From a virus (lineage: Duplodnaviria > Heunggongvirae > Uroviricota > Caudoviricetes), in IMG/VR virus record IMGVR_UViG_3300025769_000070: a stretch of DNA of 26,120 bases, one strand, 5' to 3'. Shown here piece after piece: positions 4,288 to 15,847 of the stretch; positions within the stretch are counted from its first letter, which is position 1; every line of letters starts with the position of its first letter. The translations under genes and the position numbers were made by a program. Below the pieces are notes generated by a model. The model saw only the letters and a list, made by a program, of their open reading frames with translations. It searched no databases and had not been told where the DNA came from.

Positions 4288-4736
4288 TAAAATCAGAAGA
4301 AGACCTGATAAAAGAAAATTACGGACTTGCCATATCTTTAGCTAAAAAGTTCTACAAAAAGAATAGCCTTTATTCTTTTGAAGATTTAGTTCAAATTGGT
4401 TTAATAGCTATGGTAAAAGCTCACAGACAATATAATTCTGACAAAAGCGTCTTTTCAACTTTTGCTACATATTGCATAAGAAACGATTTGATAAAGTTTG
4501 TTAAGAGAAATAGGAATGATTTAAATGTAGATCTTGTTAATTCTCCTATTGAAGAAAAATTTGATTTAGATGAAATTACTCCTGCTAACTTAACAGTTTT
4601 AGAAGCCGGAGTTTTTTATTATAAAAAGTCTGGTTATAAGGATGTAGAGATCCGTAGGATTCTAGACTTAACGCCTAATGATTTCAAAAATATCACAAAA
4701 TCCTGCTTTAAGAAAATAGTTAGAGCCAATGCGTAG
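4284..4736 (+). CDS. sigma-70-family RNA polymerase sigma factor (small, phage type)
   Basis: region 2 motifs ENYGLAISLAKKF, EDLVQIGLIAMVKA, FSTFATYCIRN; C-terminal HTH-like segment. Confidence 0.85.
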   Translation: MIKSEEDLIKENYGLAISLAKKFYKKNSLYSFEDLVQIGLIAMVKAHRQYNSDKSVFSTFATYCIRNDLIKFVKRNRNDLNVDLVNSPIEEKFDLDEITPANLTVLEAGVFYYKKSGYKDVEIRRILDLTPNDFKNITKSCFKKIVRANA

Positions 4737-6369
4737 AAAAAGAATTTTATTTGTCTCCGAAGCTAGTTACTTAAATACTGGCTATGCTACATATAGTCGA
4801 GAAGTTATATCAAGGTTGCAAGCAACTGGAAAATATGACCTTGCAGAATTTTCTATTTATGGTACTGAGGATCATAAAGAGAGGAGTTCTATCCCCTGGA
4901 AGAACTACCCGAATATGCCAAATGGTAGTTCACAGGAACAGCAAGAAGATTATAAGAGCGATGGAGCTAATCAGTTCGGAAAATGGCGTTTCGAAAGAGT
5001 TTGTATAGATTTCAAACCTGATCATATTTGTTCAATAAGAGATTGGTGGATGGATTCTTATATTCAGCATTCACCTTTAAGAAAGTACTTTAACTGGATC
5101 TATATGCCTACTGTAGATGCCAGCCCTCAAAATGAAGAATGGATTGATACATTTTCTAGTGCTGACACTGTTCTAACATATTCTGATTGGGCTGTAGATG
5201 TTCTAAAAAATGCAAATCCTAATATGAACGTTAAACGTTCCGCCACACCATCTGCTTCTGAAGAATTCAAACCAGTGCTCGATAAGAATGCCCATAAAGT
5301 CAAAATGGGTATTAACCCGGATTGGAAAATTATTGGCACAGTCATGAGGAATCAACGTCGGAAATTATTCCCCGAATTATTTGAAGCTTTCGGTAAGTAC
5401 TTAAAAGAGACAGGTGAAAAAAATACCTATCTTTACTGCCATACTTCTTACCCTGATAATGGTTGGGATATTCCTAAGTACCTAATTGATAGTGAGATTA
5501 TATCAAGGGTATTATTTACGTATGTTTGTGGAAATTGTAATAATGTGTCGTATAGTCATTTTGCAGATACGGTCCAGCCTTGTCCTACTTGTGGACAGTT
5601 CTCATCTAAATTAAGTAGCGTATCTTCTGGTGTTAGCAGAAGTGTATTATCTAATATTTACAATATCTTTGATGTTTATATCCAGCCAGCATCATCTGAA
5701 GGATTTGGTATTCCTGTCGTAGAGGCAGCAGCCTGCGGAATTCCAGTCATGGGAACAGACTATTCGGCAATGGAGACCGAGATTAGAAAACTTAATGGAT
5801 ATCCTATCAAAGTTAGATCTAAACATTTAGAAATGGAGACGGGATGTGACAGGGCTTTACTTGACTTAGATCATACTGTAGAAATATGGAAAGAGCTATT
5901 AAATAAGCCTCAGTCTCTACGTATTCAAGATAGCTTAAAAACCAGGGAATCTTTCGAGAAGCACTATGGCTGGGACAAAACGGCAAAAGTCTGGGAAGAA
6001 GAAATAGACCTTTTAGATTTCTCTGACTGGACAGTAGAACCTATGATGGCAAATCCTACCGCTTTGCCTAATAAAGAAATGAATAATAAAGACTTTCTTG
6101 ATTTTTTGATTAATGTGACTCTGAACGAACCATCATTAGTTAATACATATCCTTTTAATAAACTTCTTAGAGATTTGAACTTTGGTATGTTCCGTAATAA
6201 TCCGGGAGGATTTTTCTATGGTGAACTTTCTATTTTTAATAGAGAAGAGTATAGACCTTTAAGTCGTGATCAAATTGTGGCGATGTTTACTGAAAAGGCC
6301 AAAAATAAAAACTTCTGGGAACAAGCCCGTTTAGGATTAATAAATTTTAAAACAGAAAGTTGGCTATGA
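4729..6369 (+). CDS. GT-B glycosyltransferase (GT4-like) with internal CxxC...CxxC insert
   Basis: DVYIQPASSEGFGIPVVEAAACGIPV signature; CGNC...CPTC insert. Confidence 0.85.
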   Translation: MRRKRILFVSEASYLNTGYATYSREVISRLQATGKYDLAEFSIYGTEDHKERSSIPWKNYPNMPNGSSQEQQEDYKSDGANQFGKWRFERVCIDFKPDHICSIRDWWMDSYIQHSPLRKYFNWIYMPTVDASPQNEEWIDTFSSADTVLTYSDWAVDVLKNANPNMNVKRSATPSASEEFKPVLDKNAHKVKMGINPDWKIIGTVMRNQRRKLFPELFEAFGKYLKETGEKNTYLYCHTSYPDNGWDIPKYLIDSEIISRVLFTYVCGNCNNVSYSHFADTVQPCPTCGQFSSKLSSVSSGVSRSVLSNIYNIFDVYIQPASSEGFGIPVVEAAACGIPVMGTDYSAMETEIRKLNGYPIKVRSKHLEMETGCDRALLDLDHTVEIWKELLNKPQSLRIQDSLKTRESFEKHYGWDKTAKVWEEEIDLLDFSDWTVEPMMANPTALPNKEMNNKDFLDFLINVTLNEPSLVNTYPFNKLLRDLNFGMFRNNPGGFFYGELSIFNREEYRPLSRDQIVAMFTEKAKNKNFWEQARLGLINFKTESWL

Positions 6370-9834: not shown

Positions 9835-10600
9835 ACATGAACAAATTATTCGTAGTATGTATAAAAAAGGATGCAGTAGTTATGAGATTGCTGAACATCT
9901 AAATACTTATTCTACAAAAATTTTAAGGGCTTTAAAGTATCTTGACATTGAGGCTCGTGACTATGAGACGGCACAGAAAATTGCTATTAAAAAAGGACGG
10001 AGTAAAGTTCCAATAGAAAAAGGAGCGACTCTTACTGAGGCACACAAGATCGCCGTTTCTGAGGGCAGGGCTAAGGCGTGGTCTGAAGTATCGGATGAAG
10101 AACGTGCGAGACTGTCAGAGATCAGCAAGGCCCAATGGGCAGCAATGAGTGAAGAAGAGAAGCAAAATCTCCGCTCATTAGCCGCCGCTGCCGTCCGCGA
10201 AGCGGCTGTAGATGGCAGCAAAACTGAAAGATACCTCAGAAAAACCTTGACAGAAGCGGGTTGGTCTGTTAGATTTCACGAGAAAAATTTACTTCCTGGA
10301 CAAACCTTGGAAATCGATCTTTTTGTGGCTGACTTGAAGACAGCGATTGAAATTGACGGACCTTCTCACTTTTTACCAATTTGGGGGGAGCAAAAATTAC
10401 AAAAGCACCAGAAAGCTGACAATAGAAAAGCAGGTCTTTTGATGTCAGCCGGATATGTATTAATTAGAGTTAAACAGATGACGAAAACACTCTCCCAGCA
10501 CAAACTTAGATTAGTGTCTGAGAGAGTATTGGAGGAACTTCAAAAAGTTCACCAGAAATTTCCCGACCCCGCAAATAGACTTATAGAAATCGAGGTTTGA
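9818..10600 (+). CDS. Vsr/DUF559-like endonuclease with N-terminal HTH and helical repeats; putative homing endonuclease
   Basis: SKTERYL...EIDLFV...AIEIDGPSHF...KADNRK..LL..GY.LIRV; GC visibly higher than the flanking genes. Confidence 0.75.
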   Translation: MNFAIEHEQIIRSMYKKGCSSYEIAEHLNTYSTKILRALKYLDIEARDYETAQKIAIKKGRSKVPIEKGATLTEAHKIAVSEGRAKAWSEVSDEERARLSEISKAQWAAMSEEEKQNLRSLAAAAVREAAVDGSKTERYLRKTLTEAGWSVRFHEKNLLPGQTLEIDLFVADLKTAIEIDGPSHFLPIWGEQKLQKHQKADNRKAGLLMSAGYVLIRVKQMTKTLSQHKLRLVSERVLEELQKVHQKFPDPANRLIEIEV

Positions 10601-11412
10601 TTTTGGCTAAAGCAAGTATAGGATTTAGTATTGATAATACTATCGAAAAAGAGATGAAATCATCACTAGAAAGCTTTATAGCTTCTGTTGAAGATAACGA
10701 TACGTATTCTTTTGATGATCTAAGTAATAAAGATAAAAAGGCCGCATATTTGTCTACTCATTGGGACTCTTTTGTTATGTCCCAATTTGATGAATCAGAA
10801 TTGACTGATGGATATCCAAGAGTAAATGGGCTACGACGTGTAGCTGAATTACTTCTAGGTGATATTATTAAGAGTTGTCCGACTGAAGTTTATCCTGTGG
10901 CTCAACGCGATGAGACTCAGCGTTCTACCGTTGTGCATTCTATTACTTTCTTATGGTTTGATAAAACGGAGAGGACTTATGCTGAAGTAGCTGATTGTTA
11001 TTCCGGTAATCAAGATCCTGACTTTTTGGTTTATTCTCCATCTACAGCTTCGACCAGAGCAGAAGCCAGAGCACTTAGAAAAGCTTTAAAACTTAAGAAG
11101 TGTTCTTTTGAAGAAATCAGCCATGTAGAGAATAATCATAGAACATTAGAGAAAAAGAATAAAGCTGGGAGTGGTGCTTCTAGACCTGATCCTATTTCTT
11201 CTTCTCAAATAAGGTTTTTAGATAAAAGATGCAAAGATCTTGATGTGGATGTAATGAAACTAATTAATCAAGGGCAGGGGAGATTCGATGCTATAGAAAA
11301 TATGACAAAAGTTGAAGCTAAGGAATTGATTGATTTCTTAGCTAAAGTTTCTGCTGGAAAAGAAGAAATAGACAGTTTTATTAAAGGTTATAACCCAAAT
11401 TGGAGAGATTAA
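10597..11412 (+). CDS. hypothetical protein, possibly ssDNA-annealing (Rad52/Sak-like) recombination protein
   Basis: TTG start; ASTRAEARALRKAL and C-terminal ISSSQIRFL...MTKVEAKELIDFL resemble phage annealing proteins; the function call is tentative. Confidence 0.45.
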   Translation: MILAKASIGFSIDNTIEKEMKSSLESFIASVEDNDTYSFDDLSNKDKKAAYLSTHWDSFVMSQFDESELTDGYPRVNGLRRVAELLLGDIIKSCPTEVYPVAQRDETQRSTVVHSITFLWFDKTERTYAEVADCYSGNQDPDFLVYSPSTASTRAEARALRKALKLKKCSFEEISHVENNHRTLEKKNKAGSGASRPDPISSSQIRFLDKRCKDLDVDVMKLINQGQGRFDAIENMTKVEAKELIDFLAKVSAGKEEIDSFIKGYNPNWRD

Positions 11413-11779: not shown

Positions 11780-11808
11780 TAGCAAGTTAGTCTTAAGACT
11801 AATATAAT
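11780..11808 (+). promoter_or_regulatory. possible sigma70-like promoter for the RNA cluster with a palindromic operator in the spacer
   Basis: TAGCAA (11780-85, 3/6 match to -35), 17-nt spacer containing the perfect palindrome TTAGTCTTAAGACTAA (11787-11802), then TATAAT (11803-08). Confidence 0.4.
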
Positions 11809-11911
11809 CCGTTGCCGTATTGCTAGTCATATGAGTCATATGATTCTGTATAAAAGGGGTTTTTAAAAGAAAAAGGTGTAATAAGTTTAAGATTTTGGCA
11901 ATTAGGTGGAT

Positions 11912-11985
11912 GGTCTTGTAGCATAACTGGATAATGCAGTGGTTTTCTACACCACCGATTGGGAGTTCGAATCTCTCCAGGACTA
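11912..11985 (+). tRNA. tRNA-Arg (anticodon TCT)
   Basis: acceptor GGTCTTG/CAGGACT, D stem GCAT/ATGC, anticodon arm GTGGT-TTTCTAC-ACCAC, T arm GGGAG-TTCGAAT-CTCTC; CCA not encoded. Confidence 0.93.
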
Positions 11986-12097
11986 CTAAGTTGGCAACTG
12001 GCTGTTAAATAGTTGTCGGGATCGGACGCCTTATGGTGGTGATAACCTGAGCGGTAACCCCGAAAGCGTTACGCTGGATTCGTAACCAGCACTTTAA

Positions 12098-12168
12098 AGG
12101 CGATTAGTTTAATGGTAGAACGGTGGTTTTACATACCACAAGAGAAGGTTCGATTCCTTCATTGCCTA
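12098..12168 (+). tRNA. tRNA-Val (anticodon TAC)
   Basis: acceptor AGGCGAT/ATTGCCT, anticodon arm GTGGT-TTTACAT-ACCAC, T arm GAAGG-TTCGATT-CCTTC, A73. Confidence 0.92.
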
Positions 12169-12170
12169 CT

Positions 12171-12507
12171 GGTTGCCAGACCTTAAAACTGGATAAGCAT
12201 GTAGAAGTTATTAAATTAGCAAAACAGGACGCGGGGGGCAGAACCCCGCTACCTCCACCAAAGGCACAGACGAGATAGGAGACGACGGGTAGTAGTGACT
12301 GATCACCACACTTGACGCAGGAATCCCGTACTGCTGTGTCTCTGGCGGGGGTAAAATAGAATCGACTGGTTGTATAAGTTAATAGCTGCATGTCGTAGTT
12401 GGACCAAGGCTACGTTAAAATGGTCTAAACAATAATTGCAACTCGTAATTATGCGTTGTCTGCGTAAGCAGACGGGGGTTTGCCAGCACCTTCTAACCCA
12501 AGCTGGC
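12171..12507 (+). ncRNA. ssrA: permuted (two-piece) tmRNA gene: acceptor piece ~12171-12260, intervening segment 12261-12346, coding piece 12347-~12507
   Basis: 3' end ...TACCTCCACCA (12250-60) pairs with downstream GGGGGTA (12347-53) with G3-U70; T arm GCGGGG-GGCAGAA-CCCCGC; cross-piece P2 helices; pk1; tag GCA...TAA 12438-67 = ATRNYALSA; stop-codon hairpin GTCTGC/GCAGAC. Confidence 0.93.
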
Positions 12508-12532
12508 ATTTTTCTCTAAAAAAGGAAGAATA

Positions 12533-12631
12533 ATGAAAACATTAAAGGTTTTTAATTTTGGAGATAAGGTTGAACTAGTAAAGAAAGAAGATAATGGAAA
12601 ATGCTCAATCCAATCCCAGACTACCCATTAG
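12533..12631 (+). CDS. possible 32-aa small protein
   Basis: AAGGAAG upstream of ATG; MKTLKVFNFGDKVELVKKEDNGKCSIQSQTTH. Confidence 0.35.
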   Translation: MKTLKVFNFGDKVELVKKEDNGKCSIQSQTTH

Positions 12632-12635
12632 GTCT

Positions 12636-12709
12636 TGTCGCAGTAGCATAATTGATAATGCGGCGAACTGTTAATTCGTAAGATACAGGTTTGAGTCCTG
12701 TCTTCGCAG
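12636..12709 (+). tRNA. tRNA-Asn (anticodon GTT), irregular acceptor stem
   Basis: D arm GCAT/ATGC, anticodon arm GCGAA-CTGTTAA-TTCGT, T arm ACAGG-TTTGAGT-CCTGT, G73; acceptor TGTCGCAG vs CTTCGCA needs a bulge and has a C-U mismatch. Confidence 0.75.
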
Positions 12710-12726
12710 CTTATAGGAGATAAAAC

Positions 12727-12942
12727 GTGTGGGATTACTTCTGGAACGAACATAAAACAGAGGAGAAAATGGTGGAAGTAAGTTTTAGAGAAGATTGTGT
12801 TTGGATAAGTAAACCGTACGTGGGTGGATACCATCTTTCTTACACTGAGGCCAGACATCTGCTTGAAAAACTAAAGAGCCTTGACTCTGAACGACTAAAA
12901 GCAATCGATAAAAAAATAAAAGAGCTTGAGGCAACAAAATAA
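12727..12942 (+). CDS. small hypothetical protein (alternative start 12769)
   Basis: AGGAG upstream of both GTG 12727 and ATG 12769; helical C-terminus. Confidence 0.6.
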   Translation: MWDYFWNEHKTEEKMVEVSFREDCVWISKPYVGGYHLSYTEARHLLEKLKSLDSERLKAIDKKIKELEATK

Positions 12943-12946
12943 CTGG

Positions 12947-13019
12947 GCGGGATTAGTTTTAATTGGCAAAACGTGGGGCTTCCACCCTCAAGTTAAGAGT
13001 TCAAATCTCTTATTCCGCA
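12947..13019 (+). tRNA. tRNA-Gly (anticodon TCC)
   Basis: acceptor GCGGGAT/ATTCCGC, anticodon arm TGGGG-CTTCCAC-CCTCA, T arm AAGAG-TTCAAAT-CTCTT. Confidence 0.92.
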
Positions 13020-13053
13020 CTATTAGAAGAATCAATAAATTTAGGATAAATCT

Positions 13054-13503
13054 ATGCACCCCGACGAATATCAAACAATAATGGATTATGAAGACAGAAT
13101 CGCAGAACTCGACTACAAACTCAACAAAAAGAGAGATGTGGTAGAAAGACCCTGGGGCCACTATAAAGTGCTACATAAAGGTGATGGGTATACTGTTAAA
13201 GAGCTAACTATTTTGCCCGGAAAATCACTGTCGGATCAGAGACATTTTAAGCGGGACGAGCACTGGCTAGTGATTAAAGGCACCTTAATGGTTGAATTAC
13301 AACACGAAAAACATTTTGGCGGAAAGCGTTATACAGCTTTATTAACTGACGAAAGTTTAGATCAGACTAGAGATTTATCTTATTACATCATCCCAAAAGA
13401 AACTTGGCACCGACCCCACAACGAAGGAACTGAGCCAGTAGTTGTTGTTGAAACGTGGCTTGGAAATAGCTCTGAAGATGATATAGAGAGGCGTAATGTT
13501 TGA
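13054..13503 (+). CDS. cupin, mannose-6-phosphate isomerase type II C-terminal-like
   Basis: ERPWGHYKVL...VKELTILPGKSLSDQRHFKRDEHW and EDDIER motifs. Confidence 0.85.
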   Translation: MHPDEYQTIMDYEDRIAELDYKLNKKRDVVERPWGHYKVLHKGDGYTVKELTILPGKSLSDQRHFKRDEHWLVIKGTLMVELQHEKHFGGKRYTALLTDESLDQTRDLSYYIIPKETWHRPHNEGTEPVVVVETWLGNSSEDDIERRNV

Positions 13504-13760: not shown

Positions 13761-14963
13761 ATGTTACGTAGAACATTTCTTAAATCAGTAGCTCTTGGTG
13801 CAGGAGCGACATATTGCACCCCATCAATGGCGGCAAAACCAGATAATGAAAAGTCCGTTATCTCTATCCATCTTCAGGGCGGAATTTCTGCCGTTGATTT
13901 CATTAATCCTATTCCAGATGCACCACCCGAATTCAGATCTTCTAGAGGGTCTGTTGACGCCGGTGGTTTTTTATTGGGTGGTGACTTTAGACAGATGGCA
14001 ACGCTGGGCGATAATATGACTATTGTCCGATCAATGAAATTTAAGGATGCTAATCATCAAACCGCAACAATGGCTCACATGACCTCTCATTTTCACGTTC
14101 CTAACGCTGGACAACGTGAACCCAGCTTCGGTTCTCTTATAGCTAGAGAGTATCTGCCAAACAGCCCAAAGTCAGGCATTCCACATTATGTAAAGCTAAG
14201 AAACATTGATGGCGATGATGCCGCATGGCTAGGTATCCGATATAACGGATATGACGCCGATGACGAGGGCGTTAAAAATATGAGTCTTCATAACGGAGTA
14301 GACTCGAAACGATTTGATACTCGCCTAAAAATGATGTCAATCATAGATGACACAGCTAATCTCCCCGGACTGGGCACTGACTGGACAGATTTAAAAAATA
14401 TGGCTGTCAACATTATTAGGGGAGATGCAGCCGAAGCTTTCGACCTAAGTCAAGAGCCTAACTCAATTTACGGCGATTCTCGATTTGGTAAAGATCTTCT
14501 TCTTGCTAGACGATTGGTTGAGCGTGGCACTAAGTATGTTAGCTTGAATAGTAATGCGGGCTGGGATAATCACAGCAATATAGATGCCGCATTTGCTCAA
14601 AACGCTCCCGGATTAGATAATGGTATCTCCACACTTATCACGGATCTTAAACAAAGAGGATTGTTAGACAATACATTGGTAATTCTCTGGAGCGAATTTT
14701 CTCGGACAAAAATCAATATGAATGGCGGAAGAGACCATAATCCAAACACTAACACTCTTGTGTTATTTGGGAAGCATGGTAAAGGTGTGATTGGACAGAC
14801 TGATGATCATGGGTTGGTCAGTATGGGGGACACCTATTCACCATCGGACCTGGCATGGACTATTGGTGACCATATGGGGCTTGACAAACGCTTGACAATC
14901 AAGGATAATAGCGATAGACCACGTCACGTTTTTAAAGATGACGCTAGAAACATACTTTCTTAA
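13761..14963 (+). CDS. DUF1501-family protein with twin-arginine (Tat) signal
   Basis: MLRRTFLK; SVISIHLQGGISAVD; FGKDLLLARRLVERG; GWDNH; LITDLKQRGLLDNTLVILWSEFSRT; GRDH. Confidence 0.9.
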   Translation: MLRRTFLKSVALGAGATYCTPSMAAKPDNEKSVISIHLQGGISAVDFINPIPDAPPEFRSSRGSVDAGGFLLGGDFRQMATLGDNMTIVRSMKFKDANHQTATMAHMTSHFHVPNAGQREPSFGSLIAREYLPNSPKSGIPHYVKLRNIDGDDAAWLGIRYNGYDADDEGVKNMSLHNGVDSKRFDTRLKMMSIIDDTANLPGLGTDWTDLKNMAVNIIRGDAAEAFDLSQEPNSIYGDSRFGKDLLLARRLVERGTKYVSLNSNAGWDNHSNIDAAFAQNAPGLDNGISTLITDLKQRGLLDNTLVILWSEFSRTKINMNGGRDHNPNTNTLVLFGKHGKGVIGQTDDHGLVSMGDTYSPSDLAWTIGDHMGLDKRLTIKDNSDRPRHVFKDDARNILS

Positions 14964-15504: not shown

Positions 15505-15847
15505 ACGAACTTTTCTACACACAGCCGCTTCCGCTTTTGCCGCAGCAACAGTAATGTTTGGTAGTGGAGTAAAGTTCCACAGATCAACACTGGAAACTAA
15601 GATTGTAAATTGGTATGATTTTCTAAAATTTACACCAAAACACACAAAAGACAATGAGACTTTCATTGTTCCTTTAATGTACCGTTCTGAAGAAGATTTT
15701 GAAGAAGTTATTATTAGTATGCATGAGGTCGCTAAAAAGCAATACCCGGAGACTAAAGAATTCTGGACTTACACTATTCTTAATAGTGATGGACGTGTTG
15801 GATTTATTACCAGTAATTTAGAGCTAACAGAGATGATTTTTGCATGA
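15497..15847 (+). CDS. hypothetical protein with Tat-like signal
   Basis: MLRRTFLHTAASAFAAA. Confidence 0.65.
   Translation: MLRRTFLHTAASAFAAATVMFGSGVKFHRSTLETKIVNWYDFLKFTPKHTKDNETFIVPLMYRSEEDFEEVIISMHEVAKKQYPETKEFWTYTILNSDGRVGFITSNLELTEMIFA

Follow-up and report, generated by a model that had tools for sequence, protein, structure and literature searches.

Covariation supports a circularly permuted tmRNA gene in a lineage of uncultured tailed phages

Does an uncultured estuarine/marine tailed phage carry a circularly permuted tmRNA, and is this RNA likely to function? The question is raised by a stretch of 26,120 nucleotides (IMG/VR record IMGVR_UViG_3300025769_000070; hereafter "the window"), in which an initial annotation made from the sequence alone proposed a two-piece tmRNA whose CCA-ending 3' domain lies upstream of its 5' domain. 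A sequence check found every string quoted in that annotation where it had been placed. We consider it highly likely that positions 12171-12513 are a functional circularly permuted ssrA gene of a ~140-kb uncultured tailed phage and that the gene operates by the mechanism predicted below. The relevant features, with the evidence for each, are as follows.

11912..11986, + strand: tRNA-Arg(TCT), first of the tRNA/tmRNA cluster (ARAGORN; Rfam tRNA, 61.2 bits)
12098..12169, + strand: tRNA-Val(TAC), CCA not encoded (ARAGORN; Rfam tRNA, 67.6 bits; sequence)
12171..12260, + strand: tmRNA acceptor piece, the 3' half of the tRNA-like domain (Rfam, cofold, helix table, covariation)
GGT 12171-73/ACC 12180-82 and CCAG 12176-79/CTGG 12189-92, + strand: small 5' pseudoknot of the acceptor piece (covariation)
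12197-12227, + strand: helix-2 strand of the acceptor piece (cofold)
12231-49, + strand: T arm, loop GGCAGAA (Rfam, cofold)
12250-56, + strand: acceptor 3' strand TACCTCC, followed by discriminator A12257 and the encoded CCA at 12258-60
12261..12346, + strand: intervening spacer of 86 nt, expected to be excised on maturation (alignments, folds, BLAST)
12347..12393, + strand: start of the coding piece (Rfam, cofold, covariation)
12347-53, + strand: acceptor 5' strand GGGGGTA, in which G3 is 12349
12354-65, + strand: D-loop analogue
12366-93, + strand: helix-2 strand that pairs with the acceptor piece
12394..12425, + strand: pseudoknot PK1, with stem 1 CGTAGT 12394-99/GCTACG 12409-14 and stem 2 GACCA 12402-06/TGGTC 12421-25
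12438..12467, + strand: tag reading frame GCA...TAA, encoding ATRNYALSA* (translation; Rfam resume codon; ARAGORN in relatives)
12458..12473, + strand: stop-codon hairpin GTCTGC-GTAA-GCAGAC, TAA in the loop (cofold; covariation at 5 of 7 pairs)
12474..12513, + strand: 3' pseudoknot, the probable end of the coding piece, then a T run (helix table, pair counts)
GGGGG 12474-78/CCTTC 12489-93 and GCCAGC 12482-87/GCTGGC 12502-07, + strand: stems of the 3' pseudoknot

Two models of Rfam release 15 match this locus above their curated gathering cut-offs. The alpha_tmRNA model (RF01849; cut-off 50 bits) matches 12175-12471 with 77.3 bits, over model positions 40-274 of 355 only, and the tmRNA_permuted model (RF04321; cut-off 47 bits) matches 12197-12467 with 75.3 bits, covering the full model (1-213). 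The order of parts is permuted, with the acceptor 3' strand (12250-56) upstream of the acceptor 5' strand (12347-53) and the tag frame. A better-scoring one-piece model would have counted against the two-piece reading; in a search of 11800-13100 at E<=10, no one-piece, beta-type or cyano-type tmRNA was the best match in the clan. The tmRNA finders proposed as checks gave a divided result, since both Rfam models match and ARAGORN makes no tmRNA call in the window, even with lowered thresholds, reporting only tRNA-Arg(TCT), tRNA-Val(TAC) and tRNA-Gly(TCC). Among the 12 members of the family described below, ARAGORN finds five, each as a permuted tmRNA whose tag frame is the same, and misses the other seven. 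Scores of the relatives with RF04321 range from 65.6 to 79.5 bits. With alpha_tmRNA, relative L024 scores 53.9 bits (cut-off 50), and the same scan reports no match at the cut-off in L016, L018, L019-L021 or L025. The alpha subtype label thus appears to fit the tRNA-like cassette of the window, not the phage family as a whole.

When the two proposed mature pieces (12171-12260 and 12347-12510) were folded together by RNAcofold without constraints, the predicted structure agreed with a two-piece tmRNA. The 7-bp acceptor stem with its G3.U70 pair, as originally proposed, is recovered (12347-53/12250-56, including G12349.U12254), as are a T stem of 6 bp with the 7-nt loop GGCAGAA, PK1 stem 1, the stop-codon hairpin and the last hairpin. 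Helix 2 forms between the pieces and accounts for 33 of the 40 intermolecular pairs. It comprises both cross-piece helices that had been noticed previously (12197-12202/12388-93 and 12206-14/12379-87) and extends them by two more (12216-22/12370-77 and 12225-27/12366-68).

Relatives of the locus allow these pairings to be evaluated by covariation. Syntenic relatives were located through homologues of a 271-aa protein encoded at 10597-11412 of the window, and those at 70%, 64% and 62% identity in this protein have an RF04321 match in the same slot. The protein itself has ~900 homologues, many of them ~306 aa long with a HeH/LEM domain (PF12949) and encoded on long marine (TARA) contigs. With a 21-nt probe consisting of the invariant start of the tag, 12 further metagenome loci were identified as true matches besides a single IMG/VR contig, and 2 matches were due to chance. 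The resulting alignment (A4) contains 12 distinct natural sequences that either occupy the same syntenic slot or were found with the tag probe. No tmRNA copy was found within 5 kb in the most distant of the syntenic relatives examined, whose neighbouring protein is 49% identical; the wider phage group can thus do without the gene.

RNAalifold predicts 65 nested pairs for the 12 sequences, and 34 of these exhibit compensatory double changes. We compared these values with 300 shuffled alignments and with a control in which partner columns were slid by 1-3 columns. The proportion of nested-pair cells that are paired is 96.0%, versus a mean of 82.7% in shuffles and 30-46% with slid partners; the 34 pairs with a double change compare with a mean of 20.1 in shuffles and 4-13 with slid partners. 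None of the 300 shuffles (0/300) reached the observed value for pairing or that for double changes. Several helix-2 pairs are among those with double changes, and the stop hairpin of the initial annotation, besides appearing in the cofold, covaries at five of its seven pairs. Both PK1 stems are supported: in stem 1, which lies outside the nested set, 98.6% of cells are paired and three pairs covary, and covariation is heavy in stem 2. Mature parts of the RNA are conserved among relatives, while the spacer diverges freely. Purifying selection has acted on the structure and, as described below, on the tag, and the comparisons support structural selection on the tmRNA gene across the related phages.

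Two pseudoknots in the initial annotation required partial revision. In the pseudoknot downstream of the tag, the GCCAGC/GCTGGC stem stands, with covariation support. The proposed partner stem GGGTT/AACCC fares worse, with only 73% of its cells paired and no covariation. This first stem is better read as GGGGG 12474-78/CCTTC 12489-93. Here 100% of cells pair, a double change from G-C to U-A occurs once and G.U changes to A-U four times, and the loop lengths are ordinary for an H-type pseudoknot. In the small pseudoknot at the 5' end of the acceptor piece, CCAG/CTGG covaries (GTCAG/CTGAC and CTGA/TCAG in relatives), whereas GGT/ACC is reduced to a GG/CC core. That core shifts register, and the whole element is replaced in 4 of the 12 relatives. 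A conserved 7-bp hairpin (12433-39/12445-51) places the resume codon at its top and has one compensatory change, in L025. RNAalifold with six sequences also suggested a long-range helix in which the acceptor piece would pair through its 5' end with the 3' end of the coding piece. We rejected this helix because L025 and L024 break its pairing, whereas the two local hairpins covary.

The nature of the sequence changes is also informative. Six acceptor-stem sequences occur (GGGGGTA, GGGGATG, GGGCTCG, GGGCTGG, GGGGTCG and GGGCTAT). Across all 12 variants, G1-C72, G2-C71, G3.U70 and A73 are invariant, and pairs 4-7 covary. Relative L004, at 91% overall identity to the window, has the same acceptor piece and tag and a replaced spacer, and five double compensatory changes rebuild both of its PK1 stems.

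The tag predicted at 12438-67 is confirmed by translation: the frame GCA ACT CGT AAT TAT GCG TTG TCT GCG TAA encodes ATRNYALSA*, its resume codon aligns to that of the Rfam consensus, and ARAGORN finds the same frame in the five relatives that it detects. Tags in the family are ATRNYALSA, ATRNYTVAA, ATRNYAVAA, ATRNYSVAA, ANRNYAMVA and ATRNYAVAV, giving the consensus A(T/N)RNY(A/T/S)(L/V/M)(S/A/V)(A/V). The C-terminus is mostly Ala, as is typical of ssrA tags. The tag in the window ends in LSA and not in the usual (L/V)AA, and most relatives end in VAA.

The DNA surrounding the gene belongs to a phage, as can be concluded from the adjoining gene for a 2318-aa PhageMin_Tail tape-measure protein, into which a series of large minus-strand genes runs on. 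The window also encodes a DnaE fragment, a DNA methyltransferase, a sigma factor, glycosyltransferases and an HNH endonuclease, with PHROG matches, and one relative is an IMG/VR viral contig of 64.8 kb that is estimated to be 42% complete. The concern that the contig might be cellular or chimeric is not borne out by these neighbours, PHROG matches and viral relative. Nor is the junction between 12260 and 12347 mis-assembled, because over 11900-13100, and hence across it, six assemblies made independently agree with the window at 100% identity.

No cultured relative of this phage type was found. By blastn, no nucleotide similarity was found among 50,697 GenBank phage records; the 1024-aa protein has no tblastn match in GenBank phages; and the exact pattern of the tRNA-like domain has no match in viral contigs. 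Scans for related loci with the 545-aa and DUF1501 proteins found nothing, and relatives of the 425-aa protein are either on contigs that stop short of the tRNA cluster or are cellular and unrelated. The T arm and acceptor sequence, searched exactly, occurs in 0 of 185,579 cellular species genomes. A relaxed pattern for the GGCAGAA T loop matches 89 cellular loci, many in alphaproteobacteria (Rickettsiales, Holosporales, Acetobacter) and the rest across other phyla, and none of the 89 is usefully similar to the window tmRNA.

Clues to the host diverge. The alpha-like cassette and the tRNA-Val, which weakly resembles those of alphaproteobacterial phages, may point, though not strongly, toward an alphaproteobacterial host. 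The DUF1501 gene points weakly toward Verrucomicrobiota or Planctomycetota, and we make no host call. Most relatives have retained the DUF1501 protein, whose gene (13761-14963) follows the tmRNA at 1.2 kb and is present on at least 24 contigs in JGI, ENA and Logan assemblies. Neighbours of the protein in the atlas are a viral cluster, then Verrucomicrobiota and Planctomycetota, and one Roseibacillus (Verrucomicrobiota) genome contains 81 matches with identities of up to 35%.

How would such an RNA work? Most likely, the tmRNA would be transcribed with the neighbouring tRNA genes as one precursor, to be cut by tRNA-processing enzymes of the host, with RNase P presumably cutting 5' of G12347. 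Because tRNA-Val stops 2 nt short of the acceptor piece, the 5' end of that piece, at ~12171, would be set by 3' processing of the tRNA. The 86-nt spacer with the CCA folds as a stem-closed hairpin (-27.2 kcal/mol; another long spacer, -24.5 kcal/mol), and by inspection it contains no credible ORF, start codon or ribosome-binding site; it would be trimmed back to the encoded CCA at 12260. Free divergence of the spacer beside conserved mature parts lends such maturation indirect support. The two resulting RNAs would stay joined through the 7-bp acceptor stem and the extended helix 2. Host AlaRS is expected to charge the acceptor piece via G3.U70 and A73, and host SmpB would then bring the complex to ribosomes stalled on broken messages. 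Translation would resume at GCA 12438 and add (A)ATRNYALSA, releasing the ribosome and marking the peptide. Relatives that lack an encoded CCA would need the CCA-adding enzyme of the host, as would the CCA-less tRNA-Val of this phage. Reliance on host SmpB is presumed because Pfam scans of the window ORFs revealed no SmpB domain and smpB was not found in the 64.8-kb relative (42% complete). The gene was likewise not found in the complete genomes of two cultured phages that carry permuted tmRNAs. From its tmRNA the phage might gain additional rescue capacity or control over tagging during infection.

Other roles can be imagined for a phage-borne tmRNA. The active RNA might act mainly by displacing host tmRNA, so that rescued peptides receive the short phage tag; adaptors and proteases of the host may treat this tag differently, which would alter the set of proteins degraded during infection. 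Selective tagging has been raised as a possible role of phage tmRNAs (PMC9004378). The tag is indeed short, an adaptor-binding part is not obvious in it, and strains differ in the three final residues (LSA, VAA, MVA, VAV). However, most relatives have the ordinary VAA ending, and sequence does not separate this role from plain rescue; we regard it as improbable. Considerably less probable is a decoy that titrates SmpB and thereby blocks host trans-translation, as proposed for the RNA of mycobacteriophage DS6A (PMC4131195). This precedent and the lack of a detected smpB gene in the window or 64.8-kb relative are in its favor, but a tRNA-like domain would suffice for a decoy, and yet conservation with covariation extends to PK1, the resume-codon region, the tag frame and both the stop hairpin and 3' pseudoknot.

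Least of all do we expect a non-working gene, whether a captured fragment of host ssrA left at an att site, a decaying pseudogene or an assembly chimera. Phages do integrate at ssrA and can carry ssrA fragments (PMC9004378), and ARAGORN makes no call here. Nevertheless, the gene is complete, is agreed on by the six assemblies, has phage genes as neighbours, retains its structure through many compensatory changes in 12 variants and has a T arm and acceptor sequence that is absent from the cellular genomes searched. The conserved tag region and covariation contradict the decoy and the relic or chimera alike. A phage-supplied RNA for ribosome rescue and tagging, as the initial annotation had suggested, is the best reading given the permuted type, the phage location, the intact tag and Ala identity elements, and structural selection.

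Variants in the family differ most in their tRNA-like part, for which two designs are found. The window-like design has an alpha-like T loop, GGCAG(A/T)A; CCA is encoded in the window, L004 and L125 but not in L024; and the spacers are 86, 68 and 68 nt, with 38 nt in L024. The other design has an ordinary TTCGAA-type T loop, no encoded CCA and spacers of 11-16 nt. These designs do not follow the message-like part. L004 and L123 are 96% identical in the message part and 27% in the tRNA-like cassette, whereas L004 and L125 are 82% identical in the cassette (98.6% in the spacer) and 67% in the message part. This mosaic pattern of similarity is plain in the alignments. The contiguous tRNA-like stretch comprises the T arm, both acceptor strands, the CCA or none, the spacer and the D-loop analogue, and one exchange can replace the whole domain because permutation makes it contiguous in the DNA. 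As a tentative explanation, which we think possible but rather doubtful, co-circulating strains exchange this stretch as a cassette that moves separately from the message-like part, maybe tracking host enzymes or escaping nucleases. We speculate that exchange might follow differences among hosts in charging, CCA-adding or processing enzymes, or that it might help the RNA to evade host nucleases that target phage tRNA-like RNAs. A related observation is that the 69-nt spacer of L004 (8564-8634) and L125 (3390-3460) is 98.6% identical despite 62-67% identity in helix 2 and the message part, which suggests that the spacer moves between genes or is itself selected.

The initial annotation knew of no permuted tmRNA in a phage, but such genes are on record. 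Buchholz et al. (2022) described a two-piece tmRNA in Methylophilales phage Melnitz and others in pelagimyophages and cyanophages; of 133 unique phage tmRNAs, ARAGORN classed 53 as two-piece, 50 of these being marine or aquatic (PMC9004378). A 2025 tmRNA database lists 79 bacteriophage tmRNA sequences and introduced RF04321 (PMC11915505). In addition, two cultured phages, the only ones tested and chosen because their tRNA-Val resembles that of the window, both carry a permuted tmRNA. Caulobacter phage CcrBL10 scores 82.2 bits with RF04321 and, like the window, has an encoded CCA and a long structured spacer. Its match (L119; MH588544.1, 101295-101613) is missed by ARAGORN. Rhizobium phage RHph_I1_18 scores 60.1 bits and has an alpha-like T loop, GGCAGUA, akin to that of the window. 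The match (L120) lies at 15520-15713 of MN988519.1, a record whose SsrA note is on a neighbouring tRNA-Ile feature and not on the tmRNA.

The locus is therefore a new lineage of already documented phage two-piece tmRNAs. It shares with them a permuted ssrA gene beside or within tRNA genes of a large virulent-type phage. It differs in its shorter tag, its lack of blastn similarity, its very long tape-measure gene and its lack of a cultured relative. A glutamine riboswitch such as that of Melnitz was also considered, but the glnA riboswitch was not found near the tmRNA in an Rfam scan of 11800-13100 at E<=10.

Compared with the alphaproteobacterial two-piece tmRNA (RF01849), known from Caulobacter (Keiler et al. 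2000, as cited in PMC9004378), the window gene has in common its gene order, alpha-like T loop (GGCNGNA), encoded CCA, layout of helix 2 and PK1, and position of the resume codon. In contrast, both of its outer ends are shorter and different, five relatives (four with ordinary TTCGAA T loops among them) fall below the alpha cut-off, its T arm and acceptor occur in no cellular genome searched, and its host is not known to be an alphaproteobacterium. One-piece tmRNAs of the mycobacteriophage Bxz1 group and Bacillus phage G (PMC4131195) are likewise phage-borne and rely on host SmpB and AlaRS, as the window gene presumably does, but they are colinear, whereas the permuted gene would need cleavage into two RNAs. 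The DS6A RNA (PMC4131195, PMC11915505) also has the tRNA-like domain of tmRNA in a phage; unlike the window gene, which keeps the tag frame and pseudoknots, it lacks a tag frame and is thought to inhibit host tmRNA.

Permuted tmRNAs in phages being already known, the general picture is unchanged, and the interest of the new lineage is modest: an ARAGORN blind spot, a seemingly swappable tRNA-like cassette and a CCA encoded in some relatives only. What is added is a phage two-piece tmRNA lineage backed by covariation, in a phage type without cultured relatives. Surveys based on ARAGORN miss part of the diversity, and, given its failure on seven of 12 family members and on CcrBL10, phage tmRNAs are probably undercounted in the literature. 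The variants differ in acceptor stem (six sequences), T-loop design (two), presence of an encoded CCA and spacer length (11-86 nt), and they provide compact natural data on which parts of a two-piece tmRNA are indispensable and which can be exchanged.

Several minor observations concern the neighbourhood of the gene. Rfam reports a fourth tRNA at 12637-12708 (49.2 bits) that ARAGORN does not; its anticodon loop CTGTTAA would give GTT (Asn), and its acceptor stem is imperfect by eye. Directly 3' of the tmRNA, at 12533-12631, is a 32-codon ORF, MKTLKVFNFGDKVELVKKEDNGKCSIQSQTTH, preceded by AAGGAAG, a strong ribosome-binding site. L004 and L123 retain this site and the first codons, and the later sequence is divergent. 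The content of the downstream tRNA cluster (12544-13041) differs between near-identical strains, with no match in L004, and in relatives other tRNAs and small genes (Pyr_excise, Hydrolase_2) flank the tmRNA. Finally, the 70%-identity relative (L016, 1-1768) encodes a 934-aa glycosyltransferase with an intein (Intein_splicing, with a faint LAGLIDADG match), and the glycosyltransferase in the window (4729-6369; 546 aa) is without the intein.
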